From Tubulanus polymorphus (Eukaryota; Animalia; Nemertea), in assembly GCF_964204645.1 (NCBI RefSeq), contig NC_134029.1:13108850-13172849 (forward strand): a DNA stretch of 64,000 nucleotides. Direction: 5' to 3'. Under the pieces are notes generated by a model. It worked only from the letters and a program-made list of their open reading frames with translations. It had not been told where the DNA came from and made no database searches. Positions 1,454-61,111 of this stretch are shown here, piece after piece. The translations under genes and the position numbers were made by a program. Every line of letters starts with the position of its first letter. Position 1 is the first letter of the stretch.

Positions 1454-2236
1454 TTACTCACCTGATGCCTCTACATTTGTAGGCAGGTCTGCTCATTTAA
1501 AGTTTATGGTAGATTTAACTTGATCTAAAAAAAACATGTCGAAAGCGTAGTCCAGATTGTTTTTAAAGTACAAAAATCTATTGATTTTTTTCAAAATAGA
1601 AAATGGCTAGATATTCATTCAAGAGAGCTAGCCTAATTCGGGTGTAGATGAATACAATAAAGAAGTTTCCAGTTTCTAGGCGCCATTTTGTGGCGGTCCC
1701 TCGAGGTCCCCATTGTTGCGATAATTTGCGCTCATTTTTAAAACATAAGTTTAGATTGAATATCACATAGTTCTGCAGTCCCTTGCTCGATGAACTTAAT
1801 TTATACACCATTTTAAAGGAAATGAAATGCAGATATTTGTTGGCGATTCTTGGAATTTTTGAATGCAACAATTGAGAACAGTGACGATGTGAAACCAAGG
1901 ACCGCATATCTTAACCGCGCGTAAAAGAAATCGCAATATTTATTGATTTTGAAATATGTAAGTATATCTTGAAGCTATATTTCCAATTTTCACAGAGGTT
2001 AAAGAGGGTTATTTGCAGTTTAAGCCTGCGTTGAATTTTTTTGAATATCTTTCCTGACGACTGATCTGTACCCGCTTGAGTTTGAGATTATGCGCAAAAG
2101 GGGTCTCCCACTGCGCACCGCCATTTCACTGAACATTGAGATTTGTGAAAAGAAATCGGCTCAACTCCAGAACAGGTAAAAGTAGATCTGCCCAGGCTGA
2201 GTACATAGCACGTATTCTTCCGCGAGCCAGGTAGCC

Positions 2237-2500
2237 GACCTGTTTTACTCGTCGACAATTCCGACGATTTAGAATTGCCCACCTATTATACTCGTCGATA
2301 ATTCCGACGATTTAGAATTGCCCACCTATTTTACTCGTCGACAATTCCGACGATTTAGAATTGCCAACCTATATTACTCGTAGACAATTCCGACGATTTA
2401 GAATTGCCGACCTATTTTACTCGTCGACAATTCCGACAATTTTAAATTGCCGACCTATTTTACTCGTCGACAATTCCGACGATTTAGAATTGCCGGCCTG
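2237..2500 (+). repeat. 43-bp minisatellite (~6 copies)
   Basis: Unit ttttactcgtcgacaattccgacgatttagaattgccgaccta, period 43. Confidence 0.95.
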
Positions 2501-2788
2501 TTTCATTTGTCGTCACTAGACGATTTAAAAATTGCAAGTCCGACGCACAGGGCACAGGAAAACAAGGACAAAGAAGACATAAATATTTTTCCGTGCGTTT
2601 ACGAGAAACATTGTTTCAAGATCAAACATGCTTGATTCTGCTGTGTTTCCATGTTTTTTCCTATGCCGTGTGCATCAGGCTTTAGAGAAGCACAACTCAG
2701 AGATTGTTCTTGATTGATAACTATTAAAGTTTAATCACCCACACAGTTATGAATTACCAATTGTTTGATAGATTGCACTACAAGATTA

Positions 2789-3612
2789 GATCGAGGGGCT
2801 GTGTGTGTGCGTGGATTACCCTGATATAATGTGGCTGGGATCGAGGGGCTGTGTGTGTGCGTGGATTACCCTTATATAATGTGGCTGGGATCGAGGGGCT
2901 GCGTGTTTGCGTGGATTACCCTTGAATAAGGTGGCTGGGATCGAGGGGCTGGGTGTGTGCGTGGATTACCCTGATATAATGTGGCTGGGATCGAGGGGCT
3001 GCGTGTGTGCGTGGATTACCCTGATATAATGTGGCTGGGATCGAGGGGCTGCGTGTGTGCGTGGATTACCCTGATATAATGTGGCTGGGATCGAGGGGCT
3101 GCGTGTGTGCGTGGATTACCCTGATATAATGTGGCTGGGATCGAGGGGCTGTGTGTGTGCGTGGATTACCCTGATATAATGTGGCTGGGATCGAGGGCTG
3201 TGTGTTTGCGTGGATTACCCTTGAATAAAGTGGCTGGGATCGAGGGGCTGCGTGTTTGCGTGGATTACCCTTGAATAAGGTGGCTGGGTTTTGAGGGGCT
3301 GTGTTTTTGCGTGGATTACCCCTGATATAAAGTGGCTGGGATCGAGGGGCTGTGTGTGCGTGCATTACCCTGATATAAAGTGGCCGGGATCGAGGGGCTG
3401 TGTGTGTGCGCGGATTACCCTGATATAAAGTGGCTGGGATCGAGGGGTTGTGTGTTTGCGTGGATTACCCTTGAATAAGGTGGCTGGGATCGAGGGGCTG
3501 TGTGTTTGCGTGGATTACCCTTGAATAAGGTGGCTGGGATCGAGGGGCTGGGTGTTTGTGTGGATTACCCTGATATAAAATGGCTGGGATGAAGGACCGT
3601 GTGTAGATTACC
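2789..3612 (+). repeat. 50-bp minisatellite (~16 copies)
   Basis: Unit gatcgaggggctgtgtgtgtgcgtggattaccctgatataatgtggctgg, period 50, no spacers. Confidence 0.95.
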
Positions 3613-3682
3613 CTTTATAGATACAAACTGCAATCGGCATCAAGTGGCCGTGTCGTTGCTTGAAAATTTATCTTCCCTTCAA

Positions 3683-4030
3683 CAATTCTAAATCGTCGGA
3701 ATTGTCTACGAGTAAAATAGGTCGGCAATTTAAAATCGTCGGAATTGTCGACGAGTAAAATAGGTCGGCAATTCTAAATCGTCGGAATTGTCTACGAGTA
3801 AAATAGGTCGGCAATTCTAAATCGTCGGAATTGTCGACGAGTAAAATAGGTCTGCAATTCTAAATCGTCGGAATTGTCGACGAGTAAAATAGGTCGGCAA
3901 TTCTAAATCGTCGGAATTGTCGACGAGTAAAATAGGTCGGCAATTCTAAATCGTCGGAATTGTCGACGAGTAAAATAGGTCGGCAATTCTAAATCGTCGG
4001 AATTGTCGACGAGTAAAATAGGTCGGCAAT
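3683..4030 (-). repeat. 43-bp minisatellite, inverted orientation (~8 copies)
   Basis: Reverse complement of the 2237-2500 unit. Confidence 0.95.
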
Positions 4031-7000
4031 TAGAAACCGAACCACTCACTTCATTAAAGAAAATCCTCCACGATGGAACTATATTGACCTATTCTGGAGT
4101 TGAACCAAGAAATCTTTAAATGCAATTTGATTTCTTCACTTTTTCTATGGGGATATTTTGAGATTATAATCCGTATCTTGTTTGTACTGTATTTTGGCGG
4201 GGGCAATTAGTTTAGCTGGTTTCGGGATCCAGTTTGTCCCGCTTTGAAGTTTGAACGGCCCAGTTGGGGAATTGTCGCCATGCAGCCCGTCCAGCCTAGC
4301 GCCGATTTTGTGTCCGGTGAAATCATGGGCCCAAAACGTTTTAGAGTCCATGGTGAAATGTGCCAGTCAATTTAAACGCTTAGGACATATTTCAACACAT
4401 ATCTCTCTCCGGTAATCCATCATCCTGGGATCATACGACGAATTTACTGAATCTCAACCTTTTTGCTGGAAAACATCGACCAGATAACCTGACTGATATA
4501 AAATATCAATATTATATTTAAAGGGGATCCCCCATTTGATATTCTGTTTTAGGGGCTCAACGTCCAGTTAGGCTACTTAAAGCTGCGCCGCATATTCAAA
4601 AATATATAAAAACTTAGATTAGATTGTTCTAGTGTCCATCCATGAGTGGAACATTCTGTTGAAAAGCAAATTAGGCTCTCAACTAGGCTACCTATGCAAC
4701 CAACACAGAACGTCCCCACTCTTACAAGAAATCCTTCAATTTCCCATCGCTACAAAACTCGAATTCCTCAAAGCACTCAAAGTCCATTTTTAAACGTACG
4801 AAAATAAAGGTAATATATAACCATAAGAAGCAATATTGATAATTACAAACCAGTATAAAATCTTATTTTTGCGATTTCTTTTCACAAATCTCAATGTTCA
4901 GTGAAATGGCGGTGCGCAGTGGGAGACCCCTTTTGCGCGTAATCTCAAACTCAAGCGGGTACAGATCAGTCTTCAGGAAAGATATTCAAAAAATTTTAAA
5001 GCAGGCCTAAACTGCAAATAACCCTCTTTAACCTCTGTGAAAATTGGAAATATAGCTTCAAGATATACTTAGATATTTCAAAATTAATAAATATCGCGAT
5101 TTCATTTACGCGCGGTTAAGATATGCGGTCCTTGGTTTCATATCGTTACTGTTCTCAATTGTTGCGTTCAAAAAATCCAAGAATTACCAACAAATATCTG
5201 CATTTCATTTCCTTTAAAATGGTGTATAAATTAAGTTAATCGAGCAAGGGACTGCAGAACTATGTGATATTCAATCGAAACTTATGTTTTGAAAATGAGC
5301 GCAAATTATCGCAACAATGGGGAACTCGAGGGACCGCCACAATATGGCGCCTAGAAACTGGAAACTTCTTTATGGCAGTATGAATCGCACTATAAAAAGA
5401 CTAAATTTACAAATTCAGGCGGAAAGATTGTCGTTCTGCCATTTCCACTTCTCTATTCAATGTCACATGTAGATAATATAGAACAGTCAAACTCAACAAA
5501 TGAAGTCTTCATATTTCCAAATCATTCAGGGAATCAAAATTTATTGTGAAAAGCTTTTTGTATTGGGTATTTTTTAGAATTTTTTAGAAGGTGGAACTAA
5601 GGGGATCTTCTTAATAATTTGTTTTCTCATTTTTGATTGAAGATGAGTATTTCGCAAAAAATTGATGCAAATTCAAAGCATTGAAGGTAGGCCTAAAGCG
5701 AAATGTATGGGCTGTTGCGTATGTGGAGCTATTGGTAGGAGGGATTTCCTGTCAAATTAGTGACGTCATCGACATTCACTAACCATGGCCGTTTATCGTG
5801 CTCCCAACCAATCAGAGCTACGCGCACCTGCTACGCAGTTCCGTCGATAGACTGTTTAGTAATACATTTTCTTGCCAAACTTCTATTCTAAATCTATATT
5901 GTATGAAAATAGAAATATTAATTTGAAAATATTTTGCATTCCAAAATAATTGATTTTTGGTGCACCAGTGCGTATTTTGGTGAATGAAGCGTGCGTATGA
6001 ATATTCGGATGAATTTTACGCAATACTTATGCATATAGAAAACACCGAACAGGTGAACTAGTATTGTAAAGGATATACGTATAGCCATTCACGATCACGA
6101 CACGGTTTGTACCTAGCGATCCCGTCTTCGTATAGGACGAGATGAATAGAGATGCTAATAGATAGAATGAGATGCATGATCACATTCCGTCATGACGCTC
6201 TGATCCCTGGTTGCGGCAGCGGCTGTCTGGATTCGCGCAATAAAGCGAGTCTGGCTTTACTACGGATTATCGGCAAAAAATCCGGCACTGTATCACAGCT
6301 CTGTCCTTGTACACGCAACACGCCGCGGTAGCTGCTACGCTTCATTATTTTTGACCGTCAACTAATCTACTCATATATTAAAAAATTACATCCCTCTATC
6401 GTTAATTGGTATTTTGAACTTCGACTTATCATCTCATCTCTGCTCATAAGGCTGTGGCAAATCCTCTTGGCCCATGGGCAATTTTTATTTTGAATGAAAT
6501 TAAGTTATTAATCGATTTTCATGTTGTCATCAGTCCAATTATTATTAATCGGTCCAAATACTTTATTCTAAAATTAAAATAACTCTCCAGTCGACAAATA
6601 GTACGGCCCTTATAGGCCTTTGGCAATTTCACATTTACATCATTCAGACCTGAAAATACTATGCAATTACATTCCCTCATTCATTGTTTCTGTCATCAAC
6701 CCAGACCTATAAGGCTACATGTACAGTTGGCCCTACCATTGACACAAATCTTAAAAACTGCAATGAAATGGAGGGATCGTCAACTACTGTACTGGCATGT
6801 GTAAAAGCATCACCTGTGATCTCGACCTTCAATTATAGATATACGAGTTTTCTGCGAAGACACACCATGCCATTCCGGATGATAGGAATCATCGAAAATT
6901 TATTCGATAATGTATTGACAGATTCGAACCTAATATGCAACCACTGTGTAAACGTCTAATGCGATTCAGCTTTGAAACCGAACTTACGTGGACATAAAAT

Positions 7001-9194
7001 AAATAAATATGAATTGATTAGACCAAGCATTTATTTTGTATCACCACGCTTAAAAATGATCTGTTCTAAGAATCTCATCTTAAGAATCTGCTAAGTCAAT
7101 GATCATGATATAAGAAAATATTTAATTACTAATAGATATGGAGAAAAATTAGTTATTCACTTAGAATATGAAGGATTAAAAGGAATAAATATAACTTCAG
7201 AACATATTTACCAGATAGATTTCACAGATTATCAAGTGAAGATCTAGAAGAATTATGTTCTGGTGATTTCTATTTGATATATAAGGGTAAGAATAAAAAG
7301 GGCACCATGAAATAGATTTCGAATAATATAAAATCAATTTCAATAAAAAATTATGTAATAAATGGAAGCAAATAAGAAGTTCTACTGTCCAACATGTAAA
7401 ATCAATATAGATAAATCTCAAAAAGCAAGGCATAATGAAACTAAATCTCACTTAGAGAATAAATTAATGTTAGAATATAAAGATGACATATTAGAAACTA
7501 AATTAGAGGAATTAAAGAATGAAAAAGAAATATATAAATGCGATACATGTAACCAATCATTCAGTGATAAAAGATATTTTAAAGAACATTTAAAATCTAA
7601 AAGTCATATTAGAAATAATAATAATGAAATTTTAGGTGAAGATTATTTTGACAAACATATTGATAATAAACAGAAGACAATTAAAAGAATAAAAAATATA
7701 TATTAAACAACAAAAGACCATACATGGAAGATGTAAGAAATTATATCAATTCATTAGATATTAAAAAAGAAATAGAGATAACTGAAGCATTTAAAAGCGA
7801 TATTTGACCTGCTGCTATTGAATTTAAATTTTATAAAGGTCAAACGTTAGATGAAAATAAAAAACATTTAAGAATATGAAAAATATTATAAGAAAAATTA
7901 CTGATGTTGAATACCCTAAAATTAGCATATCAGTTAAAGTTAAATTCATAAAATCTGAAGATAAACCAATATATAATATAAATTCCCATTCACAACATAT
8001 TATATCTAAACAACATATAGATGATAGATTAGATAAATGTTATAATGAAATAAAAAATAAAATAGAAGAGAAATATTTTGAAGGATCAGGTTTAATATTT
8101 GAAGAAATAATATTTATGACTTAACATGTGTATAACACAAAATATAATAAATTAACTAAATCAAAACCAATTGGTGAAAATAATTAATCATATTATAAAG
8201 AACCAGATATTGAAGCATCAAGTTATATCAAATTACCATTTAAAACTAATGCTGTTATAAATGTATAAAATTCTGATGATAAATGTTTTTTTTATGGTCC
8301 ATTATTAGTTGCTTACATCCTGCAACTGATTATATTCGTAGAGTATCAAATTATAAGCCATTTGAAAATAATTATAAGATAGATAATTATCCTGTTAGAA
8401 TTAAACAAATACCAAAAATAGAAAAAGATAATAATCTAGAAATAAATGTATTTGATTTAATCAAATTACCAAAAACAAAAGGTAATAATATAAAACATTA
8501 TACATTAGAACCTTTGTATTTATCATTAGATTATGATTCAAATGGTGTTATAGATATATTATATTATGAAAATCATTATATGTGGATTAAAAGAATTGAT
8601 TTATTTTTCAAATCAGAAAATGATTTAGATACTAAAATATATCTATGTAGAAAATGTTTACATAAATTTAGATCTGAAATTGCATTATTAAATCATAAAC
8701 AATTATGTGATAATCATGATTATTGTAAAATGATTTTACCAAAGATATTAGAATTCAAAAAATATGATTACAAAAATAAAGTACCATTTGTAATATATGG
8801 AGATTTTGAATCATTAAATAAAGAATTAACTGACCAAGATAGAAAAGAAATATATTATAAAAGAAAGAAATTAAATTCTAATGAAAATGATGTTATTGAT
8901 TATTCAGATCCTCTAATAACAAATACTATTAAAAAGATTCATCAAAGTGCTGCAGCTTTTGGATAATATATTAAATCTGATTATCCAGAACTTATTAAAA
9001 GTGAATATTATGATTATAGAAACGAGAATGTTATCAATGATTTTTGTGACTTGTTAATTGAGTATGAAATAAAATTCTATAAATTGTCAAATGAAAATAA
9101 AGAAATTATAATGACAGAAGAAGATAAAGAAGAATTTGAGTTTTTAGATAAATGTTTAACTATTTAATCTAAAACTATTTAATCTAAAAGATAA

Positions 9195-10307
9195 ATAAAT
9201 TGCCCATGGGCAAAGTGTGGTTTACCTTGAAAGCTAGAGGTTGTTTGGGGTAAGGGCAATGCTTGAAAAATCTTTTTAATTCGTGACTTCAAAGTTCTAC
9301 GTTTAAAAGTTCTGAAGTTTAAATATTGTATTTTATCTTGCTTAAAGGATTATTTTGTAGTCAAATAAGACCAAAGATATACATTTGTTTACGGTACACA
9401 TCCAAAATTTCGTAGGGTACATGTAGGCGCGGCATGGAAACTATTTTATATTTTCAAAGAAATATTTTTCATAATATGAAAAAATATTCAAATAAAATTC
9501 ATATGATGTCACATATCAGAGGGTGGCTGTATGGCCGCGGAGGCTAAAATACCGGTGCAGTAAGAAATCGGCGTATTAGATCGTTTTAAATCCTGGAATT
9601 TACCACTACAATATTCAGACCTCGACCTATACCTATGGTTTGCTGCTTAGTATTTTCAGGTCACTAGAAATTACAATCTATTACAAATTCTATCAAACAG
9701 AAAACACAGCACTCATCTTCTTCTGATGAAATGTCAAACGCGCCAGCAAGCAGCGTTACAGTATCACTATAGTAGTGTATACTGTGCACGCGTGTGTTAG
9801 TGTGTGCAACAGTCTAATCTAATGATTTCCGCGCGCACGTGGAGGCCTTGTGTAAGTGAATGTTCGCTTACAATCACCGGGTATTAAAATGAAACAATAC
9901 CTATGGCGGATAATAATTACATTCTCACCAGTAATGAGCATTTGAAATTCGCACGTATATGGCACCTTGTCCAATGAAACGTTCGCCATTCTACGGCTTC
10001 CCCATAATTATTCTAGTAGCGCCGGAATATCCCAAAAACAGTCAATCACATTCGCTCGTAGAGACAACGCCCCCCAATCGAGGTCGTTGCAATTTTATAC
10101 GCGAGAACTAAGAATTTTCCCGCCAAAAACAGTTTTTCGTAGAAGTTTTTCGTGACAGATGGCGTAGTTGACCATGTCATCGACGGAGGTTCGCCATGTC
10201 TTCAATCGCATCGATTATAAGTCGTTTAAGCCGAGAACCAATGAAACAAATGCTCACATAAAAAAACGTACCGCGATTTTACATGAATTGGCTCAATGCC
10301 AACTTCA
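9195..10307. mobile_element. Unclassified ~1.1-kb insertion in Polinton polB
   Basis: Higher-GC non-coding block separating colinear polB segments; palindrome ttgcccatgggcaa at the left end; right 123 bp recur inverted at 36030-36152. Confidence 0.6.
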
Positions 10308-10838
10308 ACAAAGGTCAACCAAAAAGTAAGAGATCATGATCATTTGAATGGAAGGTTTAGAGGTGCAGCACATGAGAATTGTAACTTACAAGCTGAGAAA
10401 ATCAATTTTGTTCCAGTAATATTTCATAACTTATCAGGGTATGATACACATTTATTCGTCAAGCAACTATGTCATAAGATAGAAGAAATCAATAATGAAA
10501 TAGAAAGATTAAATTCAAATAGATCAAAAGATTTTGCTAAAATACCAACTTATAAATTTAAAATGTTAGCTAAAACATCTGAAAATTATATATCTTTTCA
10601 ATTTGGGTGTCTAAGATTTATAGATTCATATAGATTTTTAAGTAGTTCATTAGACAATTTATCAAAAAGTTTAATCGATGATGAATTAAATGTTTAAGCA
10701 CCACTATGTAAATAATGATGATTTTCAATTAATGAGATATAAAGGCGCGATTCCATATTAATTTTATAAAAATCATAATGATTTTAACATAACTGAATTA
10801 TTAAAAGAACAATTTTATGATGAATTAAAAAATGAATA

Positions 10839-13800
10839 AGGTAACGTGGGGTGACTTGGCCATATGTCTTTTAAATCCGATATTCTTAATCACTTGATTG
10901 CATAATCATTCCCCCAATTATTATGTTTGATAGTATGGACCATAGGTTATCTTGTACCTGTCATTAGTTAGCCAAAGTGCTATGGATGATTTGTATAATC
11001 AGGAGTAAACGGGAATTATTGTGTGACCAAGTCACCCCATACAACATGGGTGACTTGGTCAGTGCATGGGGTGAATTGGTCATATTAGCTATAATACATG
11101 TATATGACAACCCATGGCCCTACCCTCAGGAGAAGTTTTATTCTGACCGGTGTAAAATGTTTTTACCCACCGGTACCTTGGTCAAAAGATAAAAAGGATG
11201 GTTTTGCGATTGCAGAGATCTCCTATAAGCTTAGTAGAAGTGTTCCGCAATTACTTCTGCAATCATAGGTTACTTGTGGACAACTGACCATTATACTGAA
11301 CAAGATCATGCTGCGACTAAATTCATTGTTGTTAATGACTAGTAGGCTTGGGTAGTAAATGGGTCTGTTTCTGGATCCCTTGATTAGACAGTCACATGCA
11401 GAAAATCCTGTTTTCCGATATAATACAACGGTATGCTAGAATAAAAACGCTACAAATAGGGTGTAATGTTTGTGGTGTTTTCATTCTAGCATAATAACTT
11501 CAGGAAACCTTGATAACTCTGACGTTACAGGGTTAAATCCCATGCTCTATAAAAACCATAGTCTGAACTGAAAATGACTCTCTCTTGAATAAAAGTAATG
11601 AAGGCTGATGGAATGTAATCTTTCAAACAGAACCTTGCTATATTTTTTTATATCTGACAGAATACCTCATAAATCTATGCTATATACATGCATTATCAAC
11701 TTTTCACATAAGTACAGTTGTGTGTTATGCCAGAATTTATTCAAATCTATTCATAGACAATCTTATTCAAGAACACTAAACAATCAAATTTTAGTAAAAT
11801 TCTAACGATCAACAAAACATGAATAACGGCAACTAATTGCTATATAACGATAAAACACAAGTACGTAGAACAATATTATTCACCATACTCATCACACCAT
11901 TTCGAAAAACATTTCTCTATGAGGGCCAGCTTTTCTGATGTCACACCTACAAATCGTGAACCAACATTGATGATATCTGACTCAGAGATGGAACAGAGAA
12001 TATCTTCCTTACAGGTTTCCAGAATATCATCCTTAGGTGGTGACGAGAACCTATTCACCCCATGCCATCGTTTATACTTTAAGAATACAGTTGGAGAAAT
12101 TGCTGGACTTGATTTCAACACTGTCGTGACATACCACTTTTGATTATAGACTGCAATAACAAATTTTCCAATTTCATACTCTCTAGCTATCATGTTCTCC
12201 ATTTGGCCAATCATATCGCTATCATTTTCCAGTTGACCGATGTCGTCATCACTATCATCATCAATTTCCGGTTCTTCTTCATTACCATCTTCAGAATCAG
12301 ACACATTTTCCTTGTTTCCGTTCACTTTTTTTCTTATTTTTGAGTTTGGTTTCTTTTTTTTAGCTCTCTTCTGTTCTTTCTTTTGTTCTTCCTGTTCGAG
12401 CCGCTCAACAACGTCATTTACTGTGAGACATTCAGCAAATTTCCTGTCTAGTCTTTTTCTCTTCTTCGGAGGCTCAGGAGCAGAATACTTGAAATGATCA
12501 AGCAATGCCTTCTCAAGACTAGATTTTGGACTGAGGACATCAGAGTTTTGCGATCTTTCCGGACGAGGGGTGATGACGTTGCTACCAGGTGGCTTACTAT
12601 GGACTTCAGCAGTTACAGTGATTGTACTTGGGCCTTCTCTGAATTGTGTACTCGAGCGTAGAAGGTCTCTCGGTTGAACGGATATATTCTCACGGGATCT
12701 TGAGGCATCAGTTCTGGTTATCTCGTTGTCGTTAGTTACAGTTTCAGTGGGAGTTTCAGGCAAAGCGCAAGATGTCTTGAGTAGTTCATCGCCTATCTTG
12801 GTTTTATCAAGCGGGTATATTCCACATTTCTCAAATGCGTTGATTGCATTCATTCGCGACATACAACTAGATTGGTGGACTTTATTCAGGAGGGAAGGGA
12901 ATGTAGCTTTATCTACAGATTTAAACCTAGTTGATACGTAGTGTTCATTTAGAACCTTCCGCCAACTTTGTTTTAGCGCCTTATATACCCCTACATCAAG
13001 TGGTTGAAGAATACTACTAGTGTGCGCTGGTATGCAAAAGATGATCACATCATTCTGCATAGCCAGGTTCAGCACATCCAAATTGATGTGAGAATTGTGT
13101 CCATCATATAACAGTAACTTTTTTCCAGGTATGGTTTTGGTCTCTTCTAGAAAAACTTTCTTAAACCATTCAGAAAATTGAGGAGTTTCCATCCATCCAG
13201 AGTCTGATACGTTATATCTCGCTCGCTCAGGCCCACCAGTGCACCAAGACTCATACAAGTTCTTTGCTTTGTAGACAACATAAGGTGCTAGAAAATTACC
13301 ATCAGCAGAACAACATTCAACAACTGTGTACATAGTTTTGGTACTAGAACCAACCGTTACGTGTGGGTTTTTATCACCTCGTCGACATAGGACTTTTTTC
13401 GAGCCAATGTCAGTTTGAAAGCCTGTTTCATCCATATTGAAGATATGACCTGGACTATGCAGCAGCTGGTTTTCATCTAACAGTTTTTCTAATTTCATAA
13501 AGAAATCATCCACTATTTTCTGAGAACATGCTTCGGCACGATTGAGAGGGAAATTCTGTGCAATCCGACGCGATATTTTAGACTTATGGCGCTCTTCAAA
13601 TAGTCTCATCCAATCCAACCCTGGTAGATCGCCTTTAAATTGGTTTTTTCTTCCTAGGCCTCTTATAAAATCTCTCACGATCAATCTTATATCATTGCGA
13701 TCTAAACCAAAGCCCCAATCGCTGAGGATTTGCAACGAATGAACAACCAACTCCTCTTCTTCCGCTGTGAGAACTGTCTGTCCTCCTGGTTTTTTTATTT

Positions 13801-15050
13801 CTTCGCCACGTCTGTATGCCTCCAGATGTCTACGTAAAGAAGTACGACTAACATGGAATAATTCTGCTGCTTTCTTTTTTGAGAGACCATCTTCGCAGGC
13901 TTGAATGGCCGCCTGCATATCACCAGCATCATAGCAATTGTATGGGCGCCCACCAACTTTTATAACATAATCTCGTGGCATCCCTGAAAATAAAGACGAA
14001 AAATACTTAGATAATAAGGTATTTTGAATGTAGGTAATAATCCCACCGGTAAATATCCCCCCGGTAAAAATCCGACATGGGAAAAATCCCCCCCCCCCCC
14101 CCCAGATCAGTTTTCTATCAAACTTAAGTATAAAACCTAAATTAAAACAGATAATAGTTTTTACAATACTACTTAGGGTACGTAGATATTTCACCATTAC
14201 AAACTAGATTTCTTTATAGAAATTATCAAAACTACGATAATGTGATTTTTATGCATGTTGGTAGCTAAAAGTCACAGAATAATGTCATTTCTATGCACGT
14301 AGCTTGGTAAAAGTCACAGATTATCCAAGGTGAATATTGTGAAAAACGCCATGGAAAATGTGAAATTTTTGAAAACTATTCAAGTTTTTCAACATAAGAA
14401 TATAGAAGTATTTTTATTGAATTTTGCTGTGAAATCAAATTTGGGGGGGGGGGGGGTTACCTGTTTACCTGTTACCAGGTATTGTACTACAAAAACAAAT
14501 TTGTGATAGTATACAGTAGGCTAGATCCCAGTAGACCTACCGATGATTGCACCTTATCAGCTTATAAGGTTTAGCACATCAGTTATTATCCAAGAGTTTA
14601 TACATAGACCACTTGTTATATAGGTACAAGCGTGGGGTGACATGGCCACCGTGACCAAGTCACCCCAAAACAAGTAATTTCTTGATTACATTAAAGTATA
14701 AAATACCTTGCAGAAGATTCAATTTCTAAATTATACGTCACTAACTAACTAATTATAATGACACATAACAATTCAGTTCCAGTGCTCATGATTACAAGTT
14801 TTTCCTACCTTAATTCCTTGACTTCACAGCGTGAGTTTGCAGTCCGCCATTTTGAATATCTTCAAGTCACATGACTGGTCATGTGACTTCTTGACAATTA
14901 TCAATTTATAATACAGTACGATCATGACAATAAAACTATATCACAAAGAAAATAATAAGCACAGTTTGATTTTTTGGGTCGTGCCTTCTTAATTTTTTAT
15001 TGATTATGGTGGCCAAATCACCCCAATGGCCAAGTCACCCCACGTTACCT
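10839..15050 (-). mobile_element. pogo/Fot1-like (Tc1-mariner superfamily) DNA transposon, apparently intact
   Basis: TIR aggtaacgtggggtgacttggccat at both ends, TA TSD; removal restores the polB frame (NEY-VKDEVY). Confidence 0.95.
11876..13981 (-). CDS. pogo-like transposase (HTH_psq, CENP-B HTH, DDE_1 core, acidic tract, C-terminal barrel-like domain), ~701 aa
   Basis: FNMDETG, LYDGHNSH, QPLDVGVY motifs; likely start MPRDY at 13981 just after a ttttcag acceptor; uninterrupted ORF. Confidence 0.93.
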   Translation of the reverse strand: MPRDYVIKVGGRPYNCYDAGDMQAAIQACEDGLSKKKAAELFHVSRTSLRRHLEAYRRGEEIKKPGGQTVLTAEEEELVVHSLQILSDWGFGLDRNDIRLIVRDFIRGLGRKNQFKGDLPGLDWMRLFEERHKSKISRRIAQNFPLNRAEACSQKIVDDFFMKLEKLLDENQLLHSPGHIFNMDETGFQTDIGSKKVLCRRGDKNPHVTVGSSTKTMYTVVECCSADGNFLAPYVVYKAKNLYESWCTGGPERARYNVSDSGWMETPQFSEWFKKVFLEETKTIPGKKLLLYDGHNSHINLDVLNLAMQNDVIIFCIPAHTSSILQPLDVGVYKALKQSWRKVLNEHYVSTRFKSVDKATFPSLLNKVHQSSCMSRMNAINAFEKCGIYPLDKTKIGDELLKTSCALPETPTETVTNDNEITRTDASRSRENISVQPRDLLRSSTQFREGPSTITVTAEVHSKPPGSNVITPRPERSQNSDVLSPKSSLEKALLDHFKYSAPEPPKKRKRLDRKFAECLTVNDVVERLEQEEQKKEQKRAKKKKPNSKIRKKVNGNKENVSDSEDGNEEEPEIDDDSDDDIGQLENDSDMIGQMENMIAREYEIGKFVIAVYNQKWYVTTVLKSSPAISPTVFLKYKRWHGVNRFSSPPKDDILETCKEDILCSISESDIINVGSRFVGVTSEKLALIEKCFSKWCDEYGE

Positions 15051-15719
15051 TATGTTAAAGATGAAGTTTATATTAGAACATTGAATATTTGGAATCATTT
15101 TGGAATAAAAAATCATGGACAATTAGTAGATTTATATCTAAAGTCAGATGTATTATTATTAACTGATATATTCGCAAGGTTTAGAGATGTAAATCTAAAA
15201 TATTTTAATATTGATCCATGTCATTGTTATTCATCACCAGGTTTAACTCGGGACTGTGGTTTAAAATTTACAGATATAAAAATGGATTTATTAACAAATA
15301 TAGATCAATTATTATTATTTGAAAAATCTATAAGAGGAGGTGTTTCAGGTGTATTAGGTGATAGATAATTCAATGTAAATGATAATCTTGGATATAAGTT
15401 ACTTCTTTCTGGAGAAAAGGTATTGACAGATGGGCAATGATGGAACCTCAGCCTTATGGAGTATTTGAAATAACTGAAGTTTTACAGTATGAAAATAATG
15501 ATAAATTTGATTGGAAGAAAAGAATTCTAGATATTGCAGATGATTCAGATACTGGTTTCTTCTTCGTTGTAGACTTGGAATATCCTGAACATATTAAGTT
15601 TAAATCTAGAAATCTAGCATACTGTCCAGAACATAAAACTGTAACGCATGAAGAATTATCAAATTATCAAAAAAGAATTAAACTCGAAAATCATATTCGT
15701 ACAGAAAAGTTAATGGTTA

Positions 15720-16685
15720 ATTCATTTTCTACATGTGTTAATTGAAATATATTTGGTTCATCTTTTATAATTTCTAAACGCATATTAAAACCTAATGAAT
15801 CAATGAATTACAGAACACATTCAAACCAGATATACCACATTTTCCTTTTTGTGCAAAGGAACATTTTTTTATTCTTTGTAAATTTTTTGCGCTATCTGCA
15901 GCATAAAATCCTATAAAATTCTATTTTCTCAAATTATATTTTGCATCTAATACATAATCTGACACTATTTTTTTTCTTGAAGCATTACTTTTAACTATTG
16001 AAGAAATATACAATTTATCATTATACTTTATACAAAAATCTTTAGGATTATTTACATGTATTCTATAACATTGTGATGATTTCATTTAATCTTTGATTTT
16101 AAAATCTTTATTTGGGTAAACTTCTTCACAATATTTCTTTATTCATTCTAATAATTTTAAATCTGGATTAGATAAATACCAACAATATTTATTTCCACTA
16201 ATATATTTATATACTCCAGTGAACCATCTCCATTAAAAAAGCCTTTAAAAGCCTTTAATAAAATATTCTTTTTCTTCTAATGTTTCAGGTTCTATGATAT
16301 AAATATCGTTAATTTATTTCATCAAATGACATACGATTCATTTTTTGAAAAAATCTTATATGTAATGATTCATCTCCAATTTTTATATTTTATGTTGGTT
16401 TTATTTCATCACCATTATTTTCAATCGAACTATGATCTTCGGTAACATGAAAATATTCTTATTTCGTTCTAACTCTGTTAATTCTTTTATTTGTTTTATA
16501 CCTTATTATATTTTTTAATTGTTTACATCCATTTTTGTCCAAACATCAATTAATCAATTTATTTGTATTAATTCTTTTACACCATATGAAATATAAAGTT
16601 CATTTTGTCTAGGAATTATTTCTGAAATTCTTCGTATTAATATTTCGTTATTGTATTTTAATAATATTGGAGTATCAGCTACAGA
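15720..16685 (-). mobile_element. Degenerate LAGLIDADG-type intein in PolB motif C (Pol-c site); C-terminal splicing blocks lost
   Basis: Starts SVADTPILLK directly after HFD; block B HVTEDHS; endonuclease blocks FIKGFFNGDGS and FIGFYAADS; several stops and frameshifts; truncated at the inversion junction. Confidence 0.87.
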
Positions 16686-16865
16686 ATCAAAATGTAAAAT
16701 TTCAAAATGTTTTTTACCAAAATATGGTTGTAAAACATTGTATTAAAAATCATTCATTAATCATTTTGATATTTCTAAAACAGTTGAACCAATAAATATC
16801 GGTTTATACAATTCCATTGCCGTTCTTTTTAATATTACTGCTTTTAAATAATCTTCAAATCTTTT
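16686..16865 (-). pseudogene. Inverted Polinton polB segment immediately before motif C (N-extein)
   Basis: Minus-strand translation ...LYKPIFIGSTVLEISK*LMNDF*YNVLQPYFGKKHFEILHFD matches the KPxxxGxxVLExSK...YxD(TDS) region of pPolB. Confidence 0.88.
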
Positions 16866-17724
16866 ATTATGGACTTTCACTTTAGCAAAGTCCATTTTGT
16901 TATCGCATATGAAACTTTCTTCCTTTGGTACGAAATAAATTCAAAACGAGGCTTAGTTTCTCTTTGGAACTTTTAAAACATTCAATGCAGTAATTAAAGC
17001 TCTAACCCTATTTGAATTTCATCGGAATCCGTTGCTTATTTATCAATTTAGTTATTTATTTGTTGTTGGAACTACATTTCGTTTCGGAAAAACACATGCC
17101 CTTTTACGTATATTCATGCTTCACACACGTTCTCGTTACTGACTCGCTGCTATATGATGTATTGATCTGTGCATGTATATGAAAAGCGCGCCTCGCACGT
17201 GGCCTAGTTAATGTTTTCCTGGAAACTTAAAATGATTCAACAGCCAGGGTTCGTCGCGGCTCGCCGTGAAAAGCAATGAATTCCATAGAAGGGCAGTAAA
17301 ATTAGGAACTTGGAAATTGTTCAATTTACGATAATGAATTGTCTAACAAACTTCGTACATAGTGTATAGAAATCGTCACACCATGAACGTGGAGAGTTTC
17401 TATTTGAGTCAGTGGGGAAAACACGCTACCATGTATATTCATGATGAATGGTCATGCAGTTGTGTGTGATGGAGATCGTATCAATAGACAGATTTTCATG
17501 AAAACCTCTGGATTTAATCGAGGGGGACATCTTAAGCTTTTTTTATTATGTGGAGCACGGATTCTCTGAAATTCTGTCAAAAACTTTATGCCGAAGATAG
17601 GTAGGCCTACGCGTTTCCATATCATAATTCGAAAAAAAGACATTTTTTCGTGATATTTCCGTCCTCATTTTCGATCTAATTATCTGTATGTCTTATGATG
17701 GTTTTTTTCTGGTTCTTATTTCAG

Positions 17725-18638
17725 TAATTGACAATCATTCAAACAATTCACATCCTCGAGTCAATTGCCACGATACTCATACTCTGTCTGACTTGTCAGC
17801 TCCTTACCTCTATCCATGTATGATTGAGTACAGTTTGATAGGAGCTGCTGCCAGTTACCGCATATTTTTGAACGTCGGCAAAGCGATTGTCCGGAGAAAA
17901 GTGAGCATTGAAGAATTTACGAGTTTTCACAGCAAGGACGAGTGTCATCGGTCAACAAAGGGACTTTTCCTTGGGTTATTCATGATTCTGGTAACTCTCG
18001 TTTGTGTGGCCTTGTTCTTTGTTTTTGATCGTTCGGAATACACAAATAAAACGATATCTTCCTTAATATTTGTGTGCTCAGAAATATTCCTAAACACTAT
18101 AAGCTTTTTTGCATCGATAATTGGAATTTTTATGATAAGAAATTTAGACTTTACGGGGAAAGATGAAGATACGTTTGACGATAAGTTACTTATGATTGCT
18201 CAAGTTGGCTACTATATGCTTACAACCTTTGTTGCTCTAGCATCTGCCGATGCATTAGCTAAGTCGAAGCATATTCCGTTGTCACCTCTTTACCTCGTGA
18301 TGTCATTGATGGGTTTCCTACAAACGACTGCACAAAGTTTCTTCATCTTTGATGGTTTTAGCCGATGTGCCGCAAATGATGATCACGTAAACAGGAAACC
18401 AGGCCGATCAGTAATTACATTCTTGCTCGTGGTAAATCTCGCCATGTGGGCGACTTCAACTTTCGAAGTAAAAAAAGCTGAAGTAGCAGAACTACACGTT
18501 TCGTTTTACACATATTTGCCATGGAGTATCATCATGCATTTGTGTCTTCCGTTAGTTATATTTTACCGGTTCCATTCGAGTGTATGCTTATCTGATATTT
18601 GGCACCAGGCTTATATTAAAAGAGGAAAGATAGAATAG
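17725..18638 (+). CDS. Otopetrin-family proton channel, large terminal exon (upstream exons not identified in window)
   Basis: LYPCxIEYSLI, KGLFLG, KPGRxVITFLLVxN and PLxIFYRFHSSVCLxDIW motifs; multiple TM segments; acceptor tttcag at 17724; intact to TAG; AATAAA near 18973. Confidence 0.93.
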
Positions 18639-19814: not shown

Positions 19815-20862
19815 CTTTTACACAACTTTTATATTTATCAAAAGATTAAGATCAAAATGATGTTATAGATACACTGGGTGATTTTAAAGTAGGTGTTAAC
19901 ACTGAGTGTTAACATCAGAAATAAACTGCCCACTCGGTGTTGGTGTTAACAACGAATGTTAGTGTGATCAACGGTGTTAGTGTTCCAGCTAGTGTTAGTG
20001 TTACATTAACACTGACCTTAATATCAAGGTAGTGTTATCTTGGTGAAAATTTCAATGGGTTTTCAATTGCAACTAACACTAACCTCTAGGCGTCAACATC
20101 AACGTCAGTTTATGGCTCTAAAAGTGTTAGCAGCCATTTTCTTCTGAAATTTTGCTGCTAAGTCAAACAAAATGATCTTTGTTCCATTTCAAGAAGTTGT
20201 TGCTGGTATTTTAAAATGTTAGAGGGCCAAATCTTGTTCGGCGTCGAGCTGCCTTCAGTACAGAGCGACCAGAGAAACACATGATGCATGAGATGTGACT
20301 GCAGTGCATGCATGCAGTGAAGAGATTCAAGGAATCATGTTTCCAGGAAACTCATGAGCTGCTGGACACAGTACTGATTGATCACAGTCATTGTTTTTTG
20401 TTATGGAAAAACATGCCTAGATTGGTGAAGTAAGATTTTTATTTACCTTCTGCCACTGATGATATTAATCCCTCCTTGATGATAAAATCAGGCTGATCTT
20501 GGCACTAACAACGGTGGTGACATCAGTGTTAACACCAACACCAGTGTTAGTGTTAACACAACACCGGTTGTTAAGTTGGTAGATATTAACACTAACACTA
20601 ACACTAACAACCAACACTAACACCAACACCGACTTTAAAATCACCCATTATATCTATGAGAATCATTATGTGTGGTTAAAACAAATTGAATTTTTTTTTA
20701 ATAGAAAATGATTATACTAATAAAATATATATACAGTGTGAGTAGAAAATGTATTACTAAATTTTATTCTGAGAGTTCTTTTATGAATCTTTCATTAAAA
20801 AATATGCGATAATCATGATTATTGTGAATTAATTTTACCAACAGAAAAAGATAATAAAATAT
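19815..20862 (+). pseudogene. Fragment of a second, diverged Polinton polB (split by a MITE)
   Basis: LYLSKD..NDVID | YENHYVWLKQIEFFF..RKC..CDNHDYCELILP parallels 8515-8745. Confidence 0.8.
19875..20647. mobile_element. MITE with taacac/gtgtta subterminal repeats
   Basis: TIR tgggtgattttaaagt(a/c)ggtgtt at both ends; no clear TSD. Confidence 0.75.
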
Positions 20863-32098: not shown

Positions 32099-32634
32099 AG
32101 AGTAACTGTGTTATTGATTTTATCTACGCATGGCGCACGATTATTTCGTAGTAGGAGAGCAGCTTCTTAATTTGTTTCAAGAATCAAAATAAAGTTCATT
32201 CGTTTTAAAATACGTTGTTTTAAATCATTCTTGTGAAAATATTATGACATGTGGCAAAATGTGATTGTTATTGTCAAATTGCTCTGCATCGTTTCGGAGA
32301 AGAATTGGTTTACTGCGGTAATTAGCTCGTTTTCGCAACGCGATGAGCATTCGAAGATCCGGGTTAGATTTCAACGTGTGGACTCGTTATTTGTGGTTGA
32401 ATTGTTTCGGTAAGCAATTGCTTTGTTAGTTTGAACCTTAATGTTGTCACTCTTGTATTAGTTTGATTTAAAAAGATAATTTAAGATGCTTTTGAGCAGT
32501 GCATCTCAAAGTAAACTTTTAGTTCGCATATTTGGCAGATGGCAGCACCATCGAGTTGCATGTAGATTTAGAGACTTTTTACTGTTTGTATCTTTCAGTT
32601 CTGTACGTGGAATTAATGCTGGAAATTAACAGAA

Positions 32635-35499
32635 ATGGATTTATTTACTGTCACTGAAACAGGATCTGAAGTTGAAGACGAAGAACCTTTTCCCTCCGAT
32701 GTTGGTGATGACACCAATGACGATCGTGAGCCTCCTCCGAAAAAAACCAAAGAAAATGAATCTAGTAAAACGAAGCAGAGGTTTAAGAACGAATATTCTC
32801 AGAAATATTCTTTTATTAAACCTAGTTCGCTAGGCCGTTATTACGCATACTGTGATAGATGTGGTTCGCATATCAACATATCGCATGGTGGCCTTAATGA
32901 TATAGAAAAAAAACATTTTTCCACAACTAAACACAAGTCAGCAGCTAATGTAGAAAAAATCTCGAAGTTTTTTAGTACTTCGCAGGAGAAAGAAAGTTTG
33001 ATCAAGGCTGAGACATTATTCACAGTCTTTGTGGTTATGAACAGTTTACCTCTCGCAGTTTCCGATAAGGCTGGGCAACTATTCAGAGATATGTTCCCTG
33101 GCCATCCGAATGCTACGAATTATAAATGCGGTCGCACCAAAACAACTCATATTGTGAATGCGGTTGCGACTGATATCGTGTCATCTACTGTATCGAGATT
33201 GAAATCATCTCCCTTTGTTCTTGGTGTAGATGGTTCTACGTACAAACAAGAGACATATTATCCAATCGTTGTGAGATATGTGGATGAACAGTTAGAAACA
33301 AAATTGGACCTGTTAGCTAACCCAATATGGAATCAGTCGCACACAGGAGAGGCAATATTTAATATAATCAAAGCAGAATTAGAAGTGAACGCTATACCAT
33401 GGGAGAATCTACTTTCGCTTGTGTGTGATAACACAAATAGCAATGTTGGAAGACACAAGGGTGTAATAAAATATGTTAGAGATCACCAAAAAGAGGTACA
33501 CCTCGCTGGATGCGTTAATCATTTGCTCCATTTAGCATTGAAGAAAGGCCTGAATACAGCCATTAAGGTAACTAAGATTTTACTTTTGATTTCATTTTCA
33601 ATATGTAGTAATTTCACCATCTTCTAATTTTCATCAACTCAGATAGGATAGCCTTATTCGTTCAGCTTACACGTGCTGCCTTATGGTTTACACATAATCA
33701 AATGACATAAACTCAATAAAGTTAAAGTTCTAGAAACTTGTAGTTGCTATTCTGCTGTACCATTGTTATACTTTCATCGTTTGAAATCGGTGCGCATATC
33801 TTTTGTTTACAGCCTTTATTTGACTTTGATGATCTATTACGCCAGCTGCATTGGTATGTAACCAAAACGAGTAAAAGATCTGCAAGTTTTCAAACCATCC
33901 AGAAGGAATGCGGCCTGCCAGATCATACGATACTGAAGCATGTGGCTACACGCTGGCTCAGTATGGGCCCAGCCCTTAGCAGGATGCTGGAACAATGGGA
34001 AGCGCTGAGGAGATATTTTGCGAAAGAGATAGGCCATGATACTGATGGAGATGATGATCAAGAGTTTCTCGACGATTTTGATGATGGCCCTGTCACCGCA
34101 GGAGCGATAAAAACTAAATTACACAAGTTTTTCCAGAGACGCACATCAAAACTATACACTGCATTTCTGATTAAAGCGATCTCGGTAAGCATTATATCAC
34201 CAAGTCATAACCCTAAATAATTAGGATTATAAACTTTTTTGTGTTTTATAGGGTCTTTCTTACTGATAAAAGATTTTATTTCACAAGCTCTTATGATTTC
34301 TTTTTTTACAGGTGTTTGAGAGCACAAATGGATACCTTGAAACTGAAAGTGCATTGGTTCACAAAGTGAAACGAATTTTGGAGCGACTTATGTACAGACT
34401 ACTTCTCTGTATATGCAAGCCAGCAGCATTTAACCAGGGTTGTACACCTTACTCAATCGATTTCACCTCAAGGTATTTTTCATCCATCCAGTGTCATTGT
34501 AATTCCTTTGTAAGTGAATAAATTTTTTTCACTGGAGTAGATTCTTTTAGGCCTACATAAAGAAATGTAGTGAGTTTCATTTGCATTACACTACTTCTTC
34601 TGCTGTTAACTATTATTAATGCTGTCTGATGTAACTTTTATTCAGCTCCTTGCATATGTATTTATGATAATTTTCTTTACCCCTAGGTATAATATAAAAG
34701 ACAAAAAAGACCTGTTCATAGGGGATGAGGCTCGGAAATTGGTGGAAACAGTCACTGACGAAACCAAGAAGAAATTCTATCAGGATGTTGTGAAGTTTTA
34801 TTCAGCTGCCTGCACCTACCTGAAGGAGAAGGTGAATCCAAAAGACCAGCCTCTTTGGAGTCATGCTGAGGTAAAATATTCATTGAATTTGAGAACTCAA
34901 AAGAGTATTTATTCTTTCGTAATTGTATTGTTTCATAGACTTATCAACTTTTGTGTAACGATTGATAATAATAATTTTTGTAGGTAGCTGATCCACTGAT
35001 GCGTAAGGTTAGATCATTCCAGTCAGTGATATACTTCATGGACAGATTCCCTGTAATTCTTGGAGATATTGTTTTTAGAGATGACTTGGAAATCGAATAT
35101 GCTGACTTCCAAACTTTGCATGATGATGATTTTCCATCTGGTTTCCATAGTCCACCAGCAAGGGCCGATGAAAAATCAAAAGAAGTGACTGTTGAGACAC
35201 AATGGAAAATCATACATAAGATGTTGGATGATGTTGGGTCGATACGTTTCAGATTGCTGCCAAGGGTGATGTGTCATATATTGCTTGTACCAGTCAGTAA
35301 TGCTGGCTGCGAAAGAATTTTTAGTTTCGTAAGGAAGAACCGTACGGATTCAAGAGCAGCTTTGGGTCAGAAGACCTTGCAGTCACTGATGGTTATGAAA
35401 ACATCCACACAATGCAAAGACTTTCAACCATCCTCAGATTTGCTTAAGAAAGTGAAAAGTGCGACATATAATGCTTTGAATAATATTGATACAAACTAG
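32635..35499 (+). CDS. hAT transposase, 5 coding exons (32635-33567, 33813-34184, 34312-34472, 34687-34870, 34984-35499)
   Basis: BED/TTF-like CxxC..H..H finger; VDGST, VCDNT, CVNH, TRW, SNAGCERIFS motifs; splice phases consistent, no stops. Confidence 0.92.
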
Positions 35500-37027
35500 A
35501 CAATCTGAATGGTGACTATGTCTCTGGTCTATACTGACTGACTCTTGTCTCTGAAAAAAATGTGAAAATCTCAAATTAGTAGAGTTATCAGTATTCTGGA
35601 GTTAAATCTAAATTAGATTTCAATAATAATAGTTGATTTGAATATTTTTTTATTTTAGCAAGATGAAAACAGAGTTGAAATTTGACCCATGACTGTAGTT
35701 GTATTTAAGTTAGGCAATCTATGTACAGTATGCCAGGACAGTATTTCCATTTTAAGGGTTTATATTGCAATCTGTCACATGACAGCTGTATAGTGTTATG
35801 TAATTCGTTTGACAATTTATGCCAGTTTAATGTTCTTATTTTTAGTCTATTGTATATTTTTGATAAACACTGTTGATTTTTATCTTTCATAAAATAATAA
35901 AGAAAAAATACATTCTGTTGAATTTGCTGATTTTTTATTTTGCTAATAGATAATTTCATCTTTCATAAAATAATAAAGAAAAAATACATTCTGCAGAACT
36001 TGCTTATTGGTTTACCTTTGTTAGCGATATGAAGTTGGCATTGAGCCAATTCATGTAAAATCGCGGTACGTTTTTTTATGTGAGCATTTGTTTCATTGGT
36101 TCTCGGCTTAAACGATGTATAATCGATGCGATTGAAGACATGGCGAACCTCCTAATTGAAAGCAAAATATTCCTACTTGGAAAAGTCACAATTTCTTCGG
36201 TTTCGATATATTCCTATTGAAACCTTCAATATTCCTAATTAATCTGCCATTCATCCCTAAATGGAATTTTGAAAGGTTGGCAGCCCTGAATTCAGGCAAA
36301 TCCACTAGTTTAAGAGACACCAGTATCAAGATTATATTCAACATCAGAAAACCATGTATTTTCAAAATTATAGATCCGTAAAAACAGAACTTTATTTGGA
36401 AAAAACAGTTGATATAATGACAAATAAAAGTTCATTGTTACTTTTATATTTATCCGCCGGTTATCTTTAACCAACTTATGAGCAACTGGCCCCTGGATGT
36501 ATATAAAAACCTATTCATCTATGTTTACCCATTCAGGCACACTATCGGAAAATCTTCGCTTCACATTTAAATGGAAAGTTTAACATTTTACCAAATTTCT
36601 CAACGCTGACGATTTGTTCGATCGATAGCTTTTACACACTCTTTCCACACTATCTCCATAGTAGCTGGTGGACATGGGAAGTAAGTAGAACGATAATAAT
36701 TAATTTCATAAGGCAATACCTGGGGCCAGTTGTTCAAAAGTTGGTTAAAGCTACCAAGTTGACTGTTGACATAAAGACAAATAAAAGTTTATTGTTACTG
36801 TTTTATTTATCTGCCGGTTATCTTTAACCAACTTTTGAGCAACTGGCCCCTAGATGTATATAAAAACCTCATATGAAAGAGAACTAAAATATCAAAAAGC
36901 TTTTTACTAAAATATCAAAAAGCTTTTTACTAAAACAAGCAGCCCTTGCCTGATAACTCTATTCATCTATGTTTACCCATTCAGGCACACTATCTGAAAA
37001 TCTTCGCTTCACATTTAAATGGAAAGT

Positions 37028-38005
37028 TTAACATTTTACCAAATTTCTCAAACGCTGACGATTTGTTCGATCGATAGCTTTTACACACTCTTTCCACACT
37101 ATCTCCATAGTAGCTGGTGGACATGGGAAGTAACTAAAACATTTTTCTTTGATGTATGCTATTTTTCTATCATCTAATTTTGCCTTACGCTGTAAGCCAT
37201 TTACATTTCTATTGACGATATTACTGACATCTGGAAATAAAATTGTTTTCAGTTTAGCAACAAATGCCGTTCTAGAATGTTTACTTTTGTCGAACATAAT
37301 CTTCGAAATTTCAGGTGAAATATATTCATAATTCGAATCTAAACTTTTGATTATTGACGAATGATTGGGCGTATAAGAGATCATCCCGATATTGAAATGA
37401 TTTTCTTCATTAGGACCAGACCTATCGATTGTTGATGATGACTCACTCAGAGATTCTAAGATAACTTCCGAATTATTGCTATCATTTATGTGTAATGGTG
37501 CAAATGGTGTGCTCGCGTGACAATAGTTTGGGGAAGAAAAATTAATACAACTACCGGGATACTGCGTCGGGATACTACTTGTATGAGTAGTTGAAGTTGA
37601 TGGCTTTGTGGTTATAGATAGGCAAGGCGGAATATCTAAGAGGGAGTCACCAAAATCGAAATCTGATCCTAAATCGGACTCTACAGATGGTTCATCTGCT
37701 GATTGATTTCTTGGATCTGGCAACGATATATTTTTAGAATTAGACACAATATCAAGACATTTTTGCCCAATTTCCAGTAATAAATCCATTCTTGAGTTGG
37801 TGACCTTAAGTTGATTTAATATCTGCACGTCATTGCTCTTGTTTTGGAAATCCTCAACTTAAGTTTTTACTTGTTTTAGCTCCGTTTCTGAGAGACTAAC
37901 TTTAAGGGGGCTATCTTGCAGTATCATCTTCTTGATATCTTCTTCTGTAACAGATATCTTCTTCTGTAACAGATGAAGTATCAGCACTGCCACTTGCGCA
38001 ATCGA
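37028..38005 (-). pseudogene. Duplicated BEN-domain exon lacking its splice acceptor, with a frameshifting micro-duplication
   Basis: Near-identical to 38808-39770; gatatcttcttctgtaaca duplicated at ~37935-37970. Confidence 0.75.
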
Positions 38006-60543: not shown

Positions 60544-61090
60544 ATGTCAAAGAAATCGAGTAAAAATAGTATTGATATTGAAAAGACAATTGAGGATTTA
60601 TGTATTACTGATGATAAAGATACAGTTGTTTCTAATTGTGCTCAAGTTGATAATAATATTGATTTTGAATACTATTTAATATGTAAGCACCATCTTGAGT
60701 TACTAATTGCTAGTGGTAAATGTAAGGAATTTATCGGAAAAATTATAACTTTTCAAGAATTAAATAACATGAAACCAGATGAAGTAATCGAACATTTCAA
60801 AATATACGAAGAAGCTAGATTAGCTAGAATAAACGATTCTATTAGTGATGGAATAGTAAAATGTTTCTCTAAATTATGTAACCGGATAATACCAATTGAT
60901 GATGAAAATAAGTTAGAATGAAGCGTATCCAACCCATTTCTGTAATTCTGTCGTAACTAAATAATCATTCTTTAAATCACTATATAATTAGGTGGATTGA
61001 TGGCATTAATTTCTACTGGAGTTATAACATTTTCTAACATTAAACCTATAGTATGTAAAGATAAAAGTAAATAAGAAGATATTGAATAAA
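60544..61090 (+). pseudogene. Uncharacterised Polinton accessory protein
   Basis: 125-aa ORF with degraded hydrophobic continuation; same composition and strand as neighbouring integrase and ATPase. Confidence 0.5.
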
Positions 61091-61111
61091 AACAAAAATT
61101 AACTAAAATAA

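Follow-up and report, generated by a model that had tools for sequence, protein, structure and literature searches.

In our reading, to which we give a probability of about 80%, the window (the whole 64,000-nucleotide stretch of Tubulanus polymorphus DNA that was analysed) holds a dead nemertean fragment of a Polinton-type protein-primed DNA polymerase gene (pPolB) with a class 1 LAGLIDADG intein at the Pol-c site, and the intact copies of this gene are predicted to splice and are likely to home. The intein sits in an endogenous virus-like element and not in a host gene; the allele (Pol-c) is a known one, the type of gene that it occupies is new, and it is found in the genome of an animal. An intein-bearing Polinton DNA polymerase in an animal genome had been proposed earlier from this DNA (the original prediction). 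Such a gene is indeed there, but only as a dead 1.2-kb fragment.

Results

A decayed Pol-c intein on the minus strand

When the sequence was read, all the motifs named in the original prediction were found on the minus strand (Table 1). Ser1 of the intein lies at 16685, and the class 1 features, Ser or Cys at position 1 and the block B Thr-x-x-His, are present in the window copy as well as in six of six intact carriers. The copy is heavily damaged: in-frame stops number two in the N-extein fragment and six in the intein, about five frame changes occur across the copy, a 10-bp tandem duplication near 16250 disturbs the frame of the first LAGLIDADG motif, and the last ~36 intein residues are missing together with the C-extein, the end falling at about 15715-15730. 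By tblastn, residues 1126-1501 of the intact protein P0156 aligned to 16859-15715 of the window. Because of the stops in both extein and intein, the frame changes and the missing intein end and C-extein, the window copy is a dead pseudogene fragment (~1.2 kb), unable to splice or cut. Its N-extein showed 72% identity both to the intein-free P0162 and to the intein-bearing P0006, and 57-59% identity to P0023 and P0163. The GC content was 22.5% in the intein, 22.4% in the extein and 37.8% in the flank, and the equality of intein and extein fits a long residence.

Table 1. Positions of the polymerase, intein and neighbouring features in the window
Feature	Position	Strand	Remarks
Second pPolB copy, remnant, intein-unrelated	7362..15718	plus	pieces 7362-9155, 10311-10836, 15051-15718
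Pogo-like element inside plus-strand pPolB	10836..15053	minus	4.2 kb, 28-bp terminal inverted repeats
Tail-to-tail junction, plus-strand pPolB copy / minus-strand intein fragment	15715..15730		tblastn
Pol-c intein, decayed and 3'-truncated	15730..16685	minus	Hint N-part and LAGLIDADG domain; blocks F/G absent
Second LAGLIDADG motif	15891..15914	minus	catalytic Asp kept; sequence and alignment
First LAGLIDADG motif	16220..16246	minus	catalytic Asp kept; sequence and alignment
Intein block B Thr-x-x-His	16432..16443	minus	sequence; kept in 6/6 intact pPolB inteins
N-extein fragment, palm of Polinton-type protein-primed PolB	16686..16886	minus	stops at first Asp of motif C
Otopetrin gene, terminal exon	17724..18638	plus	100% identity to Tubulanus polymorphus RefSeq OtopLc-like

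A phmmer search of the X-read window frame against 1.84 billion proteins gave 171 matches at E<=0.001 (150 of them listed), the best with an E-value of 4e-44. The best match, P0006 (66% identity), crosses the same extein-intein junction as the window, and P0007 (63% identity) runs beyond the point where the window copy ends, through the terminal Asn and into a C-extein with 78% identity to the intein-free P0023. Single-frame scans of the decayed copy against Pfam, NCBIfam and PDB returned no Hint or LAGLIDADG matches, whereas an HMM built from 60 non-Polinton PolB inteins, which had been retrieved with the window as query so that the test is not fully independent, matched 16679-15771 with 108 bits (E 1.8e-33). 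The intein-profile check proposed with the original prediction came out negative for single frames in the libraries and positive for this model. The same HMM gave a second match at 16536-16333 (45 bits), and five shuffled controls scored at most 1.1 bits. Most of the non-Polinton PolB inteins that were scanned have Pfam intein or LAGLIDADG matches of their own. The observation in the window is thus confirmed as real and far beyond chance.

Intact intein-bearing polymerases

Ser-starting SVTxDTP inteins with a TxDHS block B occupy the YxD^TDS (Pol-c) site of archaeal and giant-virus PolBs. Intact copies and intein-less alleles had both been suggested as worth looking for, and protein databases supplied both. 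With P0007 as query against longer proteins, 25 matches were obtained among 2,436 candidates: six pPolBs with a full intein (P0156-P0161), one distant intein in another protein and 18 extein-only matches; P0186 proved to be an empty allele. Compared with five intein-free proteins, all six inserts share one alignment column, exactly at the Pol-c site as predicted, and split catalytic motif C there. They are 333-354 aa long with Ser1, a terminal Asn and a +1 Thr in every case; by alignment, 6/6 also keep block B, the Asp of block F and the acidic residue in each of the two nuclease motifs, and the penultimate residue is His in four, Lys in one and Ser in one. A different pPolB lineage shows the N-junction as well, in fragments P0013, P0033, P0043 and P0108.

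P0156 matched PF03175 (DNA_pol_B_2), Intein_splicing and LAGLIDADG_3 in Pfam, and PF03175 was also found on P0183 and P0186. Across the six intact carriers Intein_splicing scored 22.8-33.7 bits, below its cut-off of 35.8, and TIGR01445 exceeded its cut-off in four. PF01079, the nuclease-free Hedgehog-type Hint of animals, had no match in P0156-P0161, nuclease and terminal Asn being present instead. The AF2 model of the natural protein P0198 (pLDDT 87.7) has a predicted Hint fold with a nested two-motif LAGLIDADG domain. Its best PDB match was the TliVMA intein 7qsu (E 1e-17), with 2cw7, PI-PfuI and PI-SceI also matched, and the best viral models were those of phycodnavirus, Pandoravirus and Megavirus PolB. 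A PDB profile search with alignment A4 was dominated by polymerase exteins.

Among 174 proteins examined, 67 had a pPolB-like extein, 116 an intein and nine both, while 75 combined an intein with a PF00136-like extein and none had both extein types. An endogenised NCLDV PolB would carry an extein of the PF00136 type; the window extein matches the pPolB type, in agreement with the expectation that it is protein-primed and not NCLDV-type. Contig collections gave little: the P0007 query found 12 loci in metagenome_contigs, all intein-free pPolB (intein match 0/12), and the P0156 query none; four scans of viral_contigs returned a single chance phage locus (L001), and no locus in either collection combined the intein with capsid, integrase or terminal repeats; and phage records gave one weak unannotated match at 27%. 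In P0156, the three residues before the intein resemble those of most giant-virus-type carriers and not those of the five aligned intein-free pPolBs, possibly a trace of co-conversion.

Origin and donor of the intein

The pPolB inteins were monophyletic in two midpoint-rooted trees sampled from the top matches of one query, with an SH-aLRT of 98 (10 rows) in a quick 96-row tree and 100/98 (seven rows) in a careful 45-row tree that used 38 chosen non-Polinton rows. For the quick tree, all fragments of <240 aligned residues except three were left out, as were 11 pPolB intein rows that were short or near-duplicates. In the careful tree, three starred clades of PolB inteins of the PF00136 type, mostly giant-virus-like, enclosed the pPolB clade, which shared an open fork with P0018 and P0026/P0351; in the quick tree it stood at an open basal fork. 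The sister of the window intein was P0156 in the careful tree (100/99) and P0007 in the quick tree (96). This nesting, together with the breadth of carriers (75 with PF00136-like exteins against few pPolB subfamilies), favours a transfer into pPolB. The pPolB clade speaks for the proposed acquisition by a Polinton lineage, but the acquisition looks old and common to several pPolB subfamilies rather than an event in this animal.

The suggested kinship with PolB inteins of large DNA viruses was upheld by the nesting in the tree and by the viral model matches. The nearest unnamed PolB inteins share 35-40% identity with the pPolB inteins. It is possible, though we hold it rather unlikely, that the intein came not from a cytoplasmic giant virus but from a nuclear Pol-delta-like polymerase, either of a eukaryote or of a virus that replicates in the nucleus. 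P0018 and P0015, the non-Polinton inteins with the two highest mean scores, lie in Pol-delta-like PolBs with zf-C4pol, P0018 shares the open fork with the pPolB clade, and passages of PMC10710043 describe inteins in Pol alpha, delta and epsilon of Anaeramoeba. However, the score gap is small (215 vs about 200 bits), P0026/P0351, which are without the zinc finger, occupy the same fork and share a distinctive C-terminal motif, and the look-alike clusters are mostly Nucleocytoviricota, with atlas scores all <0.9 that serve as leads only. P0015, P0018 and P0085 are all Pol-delta-like polymerases with a C4 zinc finger and the same Pol-c intein.

Probable homing and co-descent

In the P0157 cluster (121 members), the site was spanned by four of the 15 members listed, three occupied and one empty; in the P0159 cluster (17 members, 15 listed) it was spanned by three, all occupied. 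The exteins of the occupied P0183 and the empty P0186 were 99.65% and 100% identical, with the intein inserted precisely in frame relative to the empty allele, as homing predicts. Homing cycles also predict that the whole nuclease is kept across diverged copies, and the full domain with both acidic residues is kept in all six intact inteins even at identities of only 43-86%.

By parsimony on extein trees, intein presence needs at least three changes (27 rows, a quick tree) or six (46 rows, a tree in which the window row mixes two subfamilies and its placement reflects the plus-strand copy). Intein and extein trees show the same deep splits, and the identities track across families (41-51% for exteins and 43-45% for inteins at the deepest split); the history thus includes a long co-descent accompanied by loss. 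From here one could argue that the intein splices but no longer homes, having entered the polymerase a single time, descended with it and been lost precisely on repeated occasions. The agreement of deep splits and identities would be expected under such a history. It is nevertheless improbable, as the nuclease has been retained in diverged copies, the P0183/P0186 pair is nearly identical apart from the intein, and one supported incongruence exists: P0160 groups with P0161 by intein (96/94) and with P0197 by extein (96, 27-row quick tree). Homing with partial co-descent is the reading that we prefer.

The animal host and contig depth

The ORF 17691-18635 beside the intein fragment was 100% identical to the RefSeq OtopLc-like protein of the nemertean Tubulanus polymorphus, encoded on a contig of 24.9 Mb, which bears out the proposed animal host. 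Residues 176-479 of that protein map to 17724-18635, where the exon start has a pyrimidine-rich AG acceptor, and residues 1-175 have no 6-mer match anywhere in the window. Since the upstream otopetrin exons are not in the window, the Polinton debris is likely to sit in an otopetrin intron.

The stretch was present in one public run, X1, which may be the assembly's own source. Contig depth in this run was 44 for the otopetrin contig, 5,684 and 9,561 for two intein bins and 33,000-116,000 for bins over the plus-strand polymerase remnant. The summed depth of the intein was ~130-220 times that of the otopetrin exon, a rough figure that is not a copy number; read roughly, these depths point to numerous copies with the intein and to far more copies of the polymerase. 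None of the contigs listed for X1 joins the intein to the otopetrin exon. The Polinton trait of residing in many integrated copies in the nuclear genome of a eukaryote is thus seen here, in the adjoining RefSeq nemertean exon and in the high, if rough, summed depth.

It might be supposed that protists or other non-animals are the home of the active elements with the intein and that animals hold dead passengers only. The sole animal-anchored copy is indeed dead, a host label is found on just one of the six intact carriers (P0160), and no RefSeq animal protein with an intein is among the 25 matches to P0007. We consider this explanation unlikely as well. Intein-like contigs reach high summed depth in X1, intein-free relatives at 77-81% identity occur in the same window, and the carrier clusters of 121 and 17 members, those listed lying on 7-55 kb contigs and many being fragmentary, resemble a multicopy genomic element. 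Furthermore, P0160 itself comes from a clam-symbiont bin: it is labelled as a bin of the Ctena orbiculata symbiont, has an NCBI record as a Candidatus Thiodiazotropha MAG protein and is probably clam DNA, that is, mis-binned host sequence.

Structure of the locus

The neighbouring plus-strand pPolB, which ends before motif C, belongs to another subfamily than the minus-strand fragment, its three tested pieces having 77-81% identity to P0163 and 58-67% to P0162. As the nearest relatives differ (P0163 on the plus strand, P0162/P0006 on the minus strand), the locus is, judged from sequence relationships, a place where two dead copies of different pPolB subfamilies meet tail to tail, and on the same ground a simple inversion within one element was rejected. 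No long terminal inverted repeats with a 6-bp target duplication bound the intein fragment, the copy being fragmentary, and a distinct remnant 45 kb from it carries an rve integrase and an A32 ATPase.

Two insertions split the plus-strand pPolB (7362-15718). The pogo-like element holds an intact-looking DDE/HTH_psq ORF of 775 codons (11876-14203), and empty-site joints from 10831/10836 to 15051 were seen in X1 contigs. The 10185-10307 part of the other insertion (9160-10310) is repeated inverted at 36030-36152. Elsewhere in the window we observed a second AT-rich Polinton-like remnant at 59700-64000 (plus strand; rve integrase 61622-62329, A32-type ATPase 62562-63173), a third short pPolB fragment at 20598-20861 (plus) with 77% identity to 8558-8745, duplicated ORFs with a C-terminal BEN domain at 36394-39770 (minus), transposase remnants of MULE/SWIM at 47049-48464 (plus) and hAT at 32617-35499 (plus), and a foldback-like element at 1657-5373 whose 502-nt inverted arms flank 43- and 50-bp tandem arrays.

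An assembly chimera or contaminating giant-virus DNA is very improbable, even though the region is scrambled and none of the contigs listed covers the whole stretch, since the identical extein-intein junction occurs in independent ENA, JGI and NCBI proteins, the extein is pPolB with both extein types together in 0/174 proteins, and a 396-nt X1 contig of single-copy depth (15669-16064, one differing letter, depth 47) crosses the tail-to-tail junction.

Discussion

In the intact elements an insert splits catalytic motif C. By established intein chemistry, Ser1 would undergo an acyl shift helped by the block B Thr and His; transfer to the +1 Thr would follow, the terminal Asn would cyclise, and the intein would thereby be freed and the polymerase restored. 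If splicing restores motif C in this way, replication of the element would depend on splicing. The nuclease may cut intein-free pPolB genes, and repair would then insert a copy of the intein. With many copies of the element in one nucleus, empty targets would be at hand and no other host would be needed. The trees suggest that one ancient transfer from an RNA/DNA-primed PolB seeded the pPolB clade, the donor being most likely a large eukaryotic DNA virus, and that loss and re-invasion followed. Taken as a whole, we lean slightly towards an animal Polinton lineage with a working homing intein that spreads between germline copies, the first known in a protein-primed polymerase and derived from an old large-DNA-virus transfer.

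A true intein in animal-resident Polintons qualifies the rule that metazoan genomes have none. It would also be a molecular record of gene exchange of Polintons with large DNA viruses or Pol-delta-like polymerases, and P0183/P0186 offers a natural occupied/empty pair for the study of splicing and homing in a multicopy nuclear element. Such inserts would make polymerases look broken or mis-binned, for example P0160, filed as a bacterial MAG protein.

In the open-access literature searched, no listed paper describes a Hint-domain intein in a pPolB gene or in the DNA of an animal, and an earlier mention in Repbase, Dfam or subscription journals is possible. Metazoan genomes are described as being without inteins in a passage of one review (PMC8529194), and the survey in PMC5784728 names fungi and some protists as eukaryotic carriers, along with algal plastids and four families of NCLDVs, one of them Iridoviridae. 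The main text of PMC10748475 describes HNH and VSR domains, with no splicing and no occurrence of 'intein', 'Hint' or 'LAGLIDADG'. Citing that work, a passage in Krupovic 2024 (PMC11071308) regards homing-nuclease insertions in polinton pPolB as possibly derived from intein invasions. The word 'intein' does not occur in PMC8502044, and the portions seen of PMC12220804, PMC5718144 and PMC3671162 mention inteins only generally.

Comparison with known systems

Precedents are found in inteins of animal viruses and of endogenised algal viruses. The closest known system is the NCLDV Pol-c (position III) intein of Mimivirus R322, which is defined in part of PMC549080, and of phycodnavirus and Pandoravirus PolB. 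These inteins occupy the same motif C site and share Ser1, the terminal Asn, the +1 Thr, the LAGLIDADG domain and a length of about 350 aa with the pPolB inteins. However, the gene that hosts the intein here belongs to an integrating element and encodes a protein-primed PolB (PF03175) and not a PF00136 replicase, the pPolB inteins form a clade of their own, and a copy lies in an animal chromosome. The archaeal inteins (TliVMA 7qsu, 2cw7, PI-PfuI 1dq3) and yeast PI-SceI have the same Hint and LAGLIDADG fold as modelled for the pPolB intein, but with 11-18% identity they are not its immediate source.

The HNH and VSR insertions in pPolB2 of nematodes, oomycetes and molluscs (Jeong 2023, PMC10748475) likewise place a nuclease in a Polinton pPolB. 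They are fused domains, whereas the pPolB intein splits the active site and has empty alleles. The insect iridovirus inteins, as given in parts of PMC5784728 and PMC549080, belong to viruses that infect animals, but these are free viruses. Passages of PMC10710043 report, besides inteins in Anaeramoeba PolBs, viral-like polymerase inteins on algal and labyrinthulid nuclear scaffolds, which are also viral inteins in nuclear genomes. As presented there, those cases are giant-virus genes in non-animals, whereas here the intein resides in a multicopy Polinton-type gene in an animal genome.
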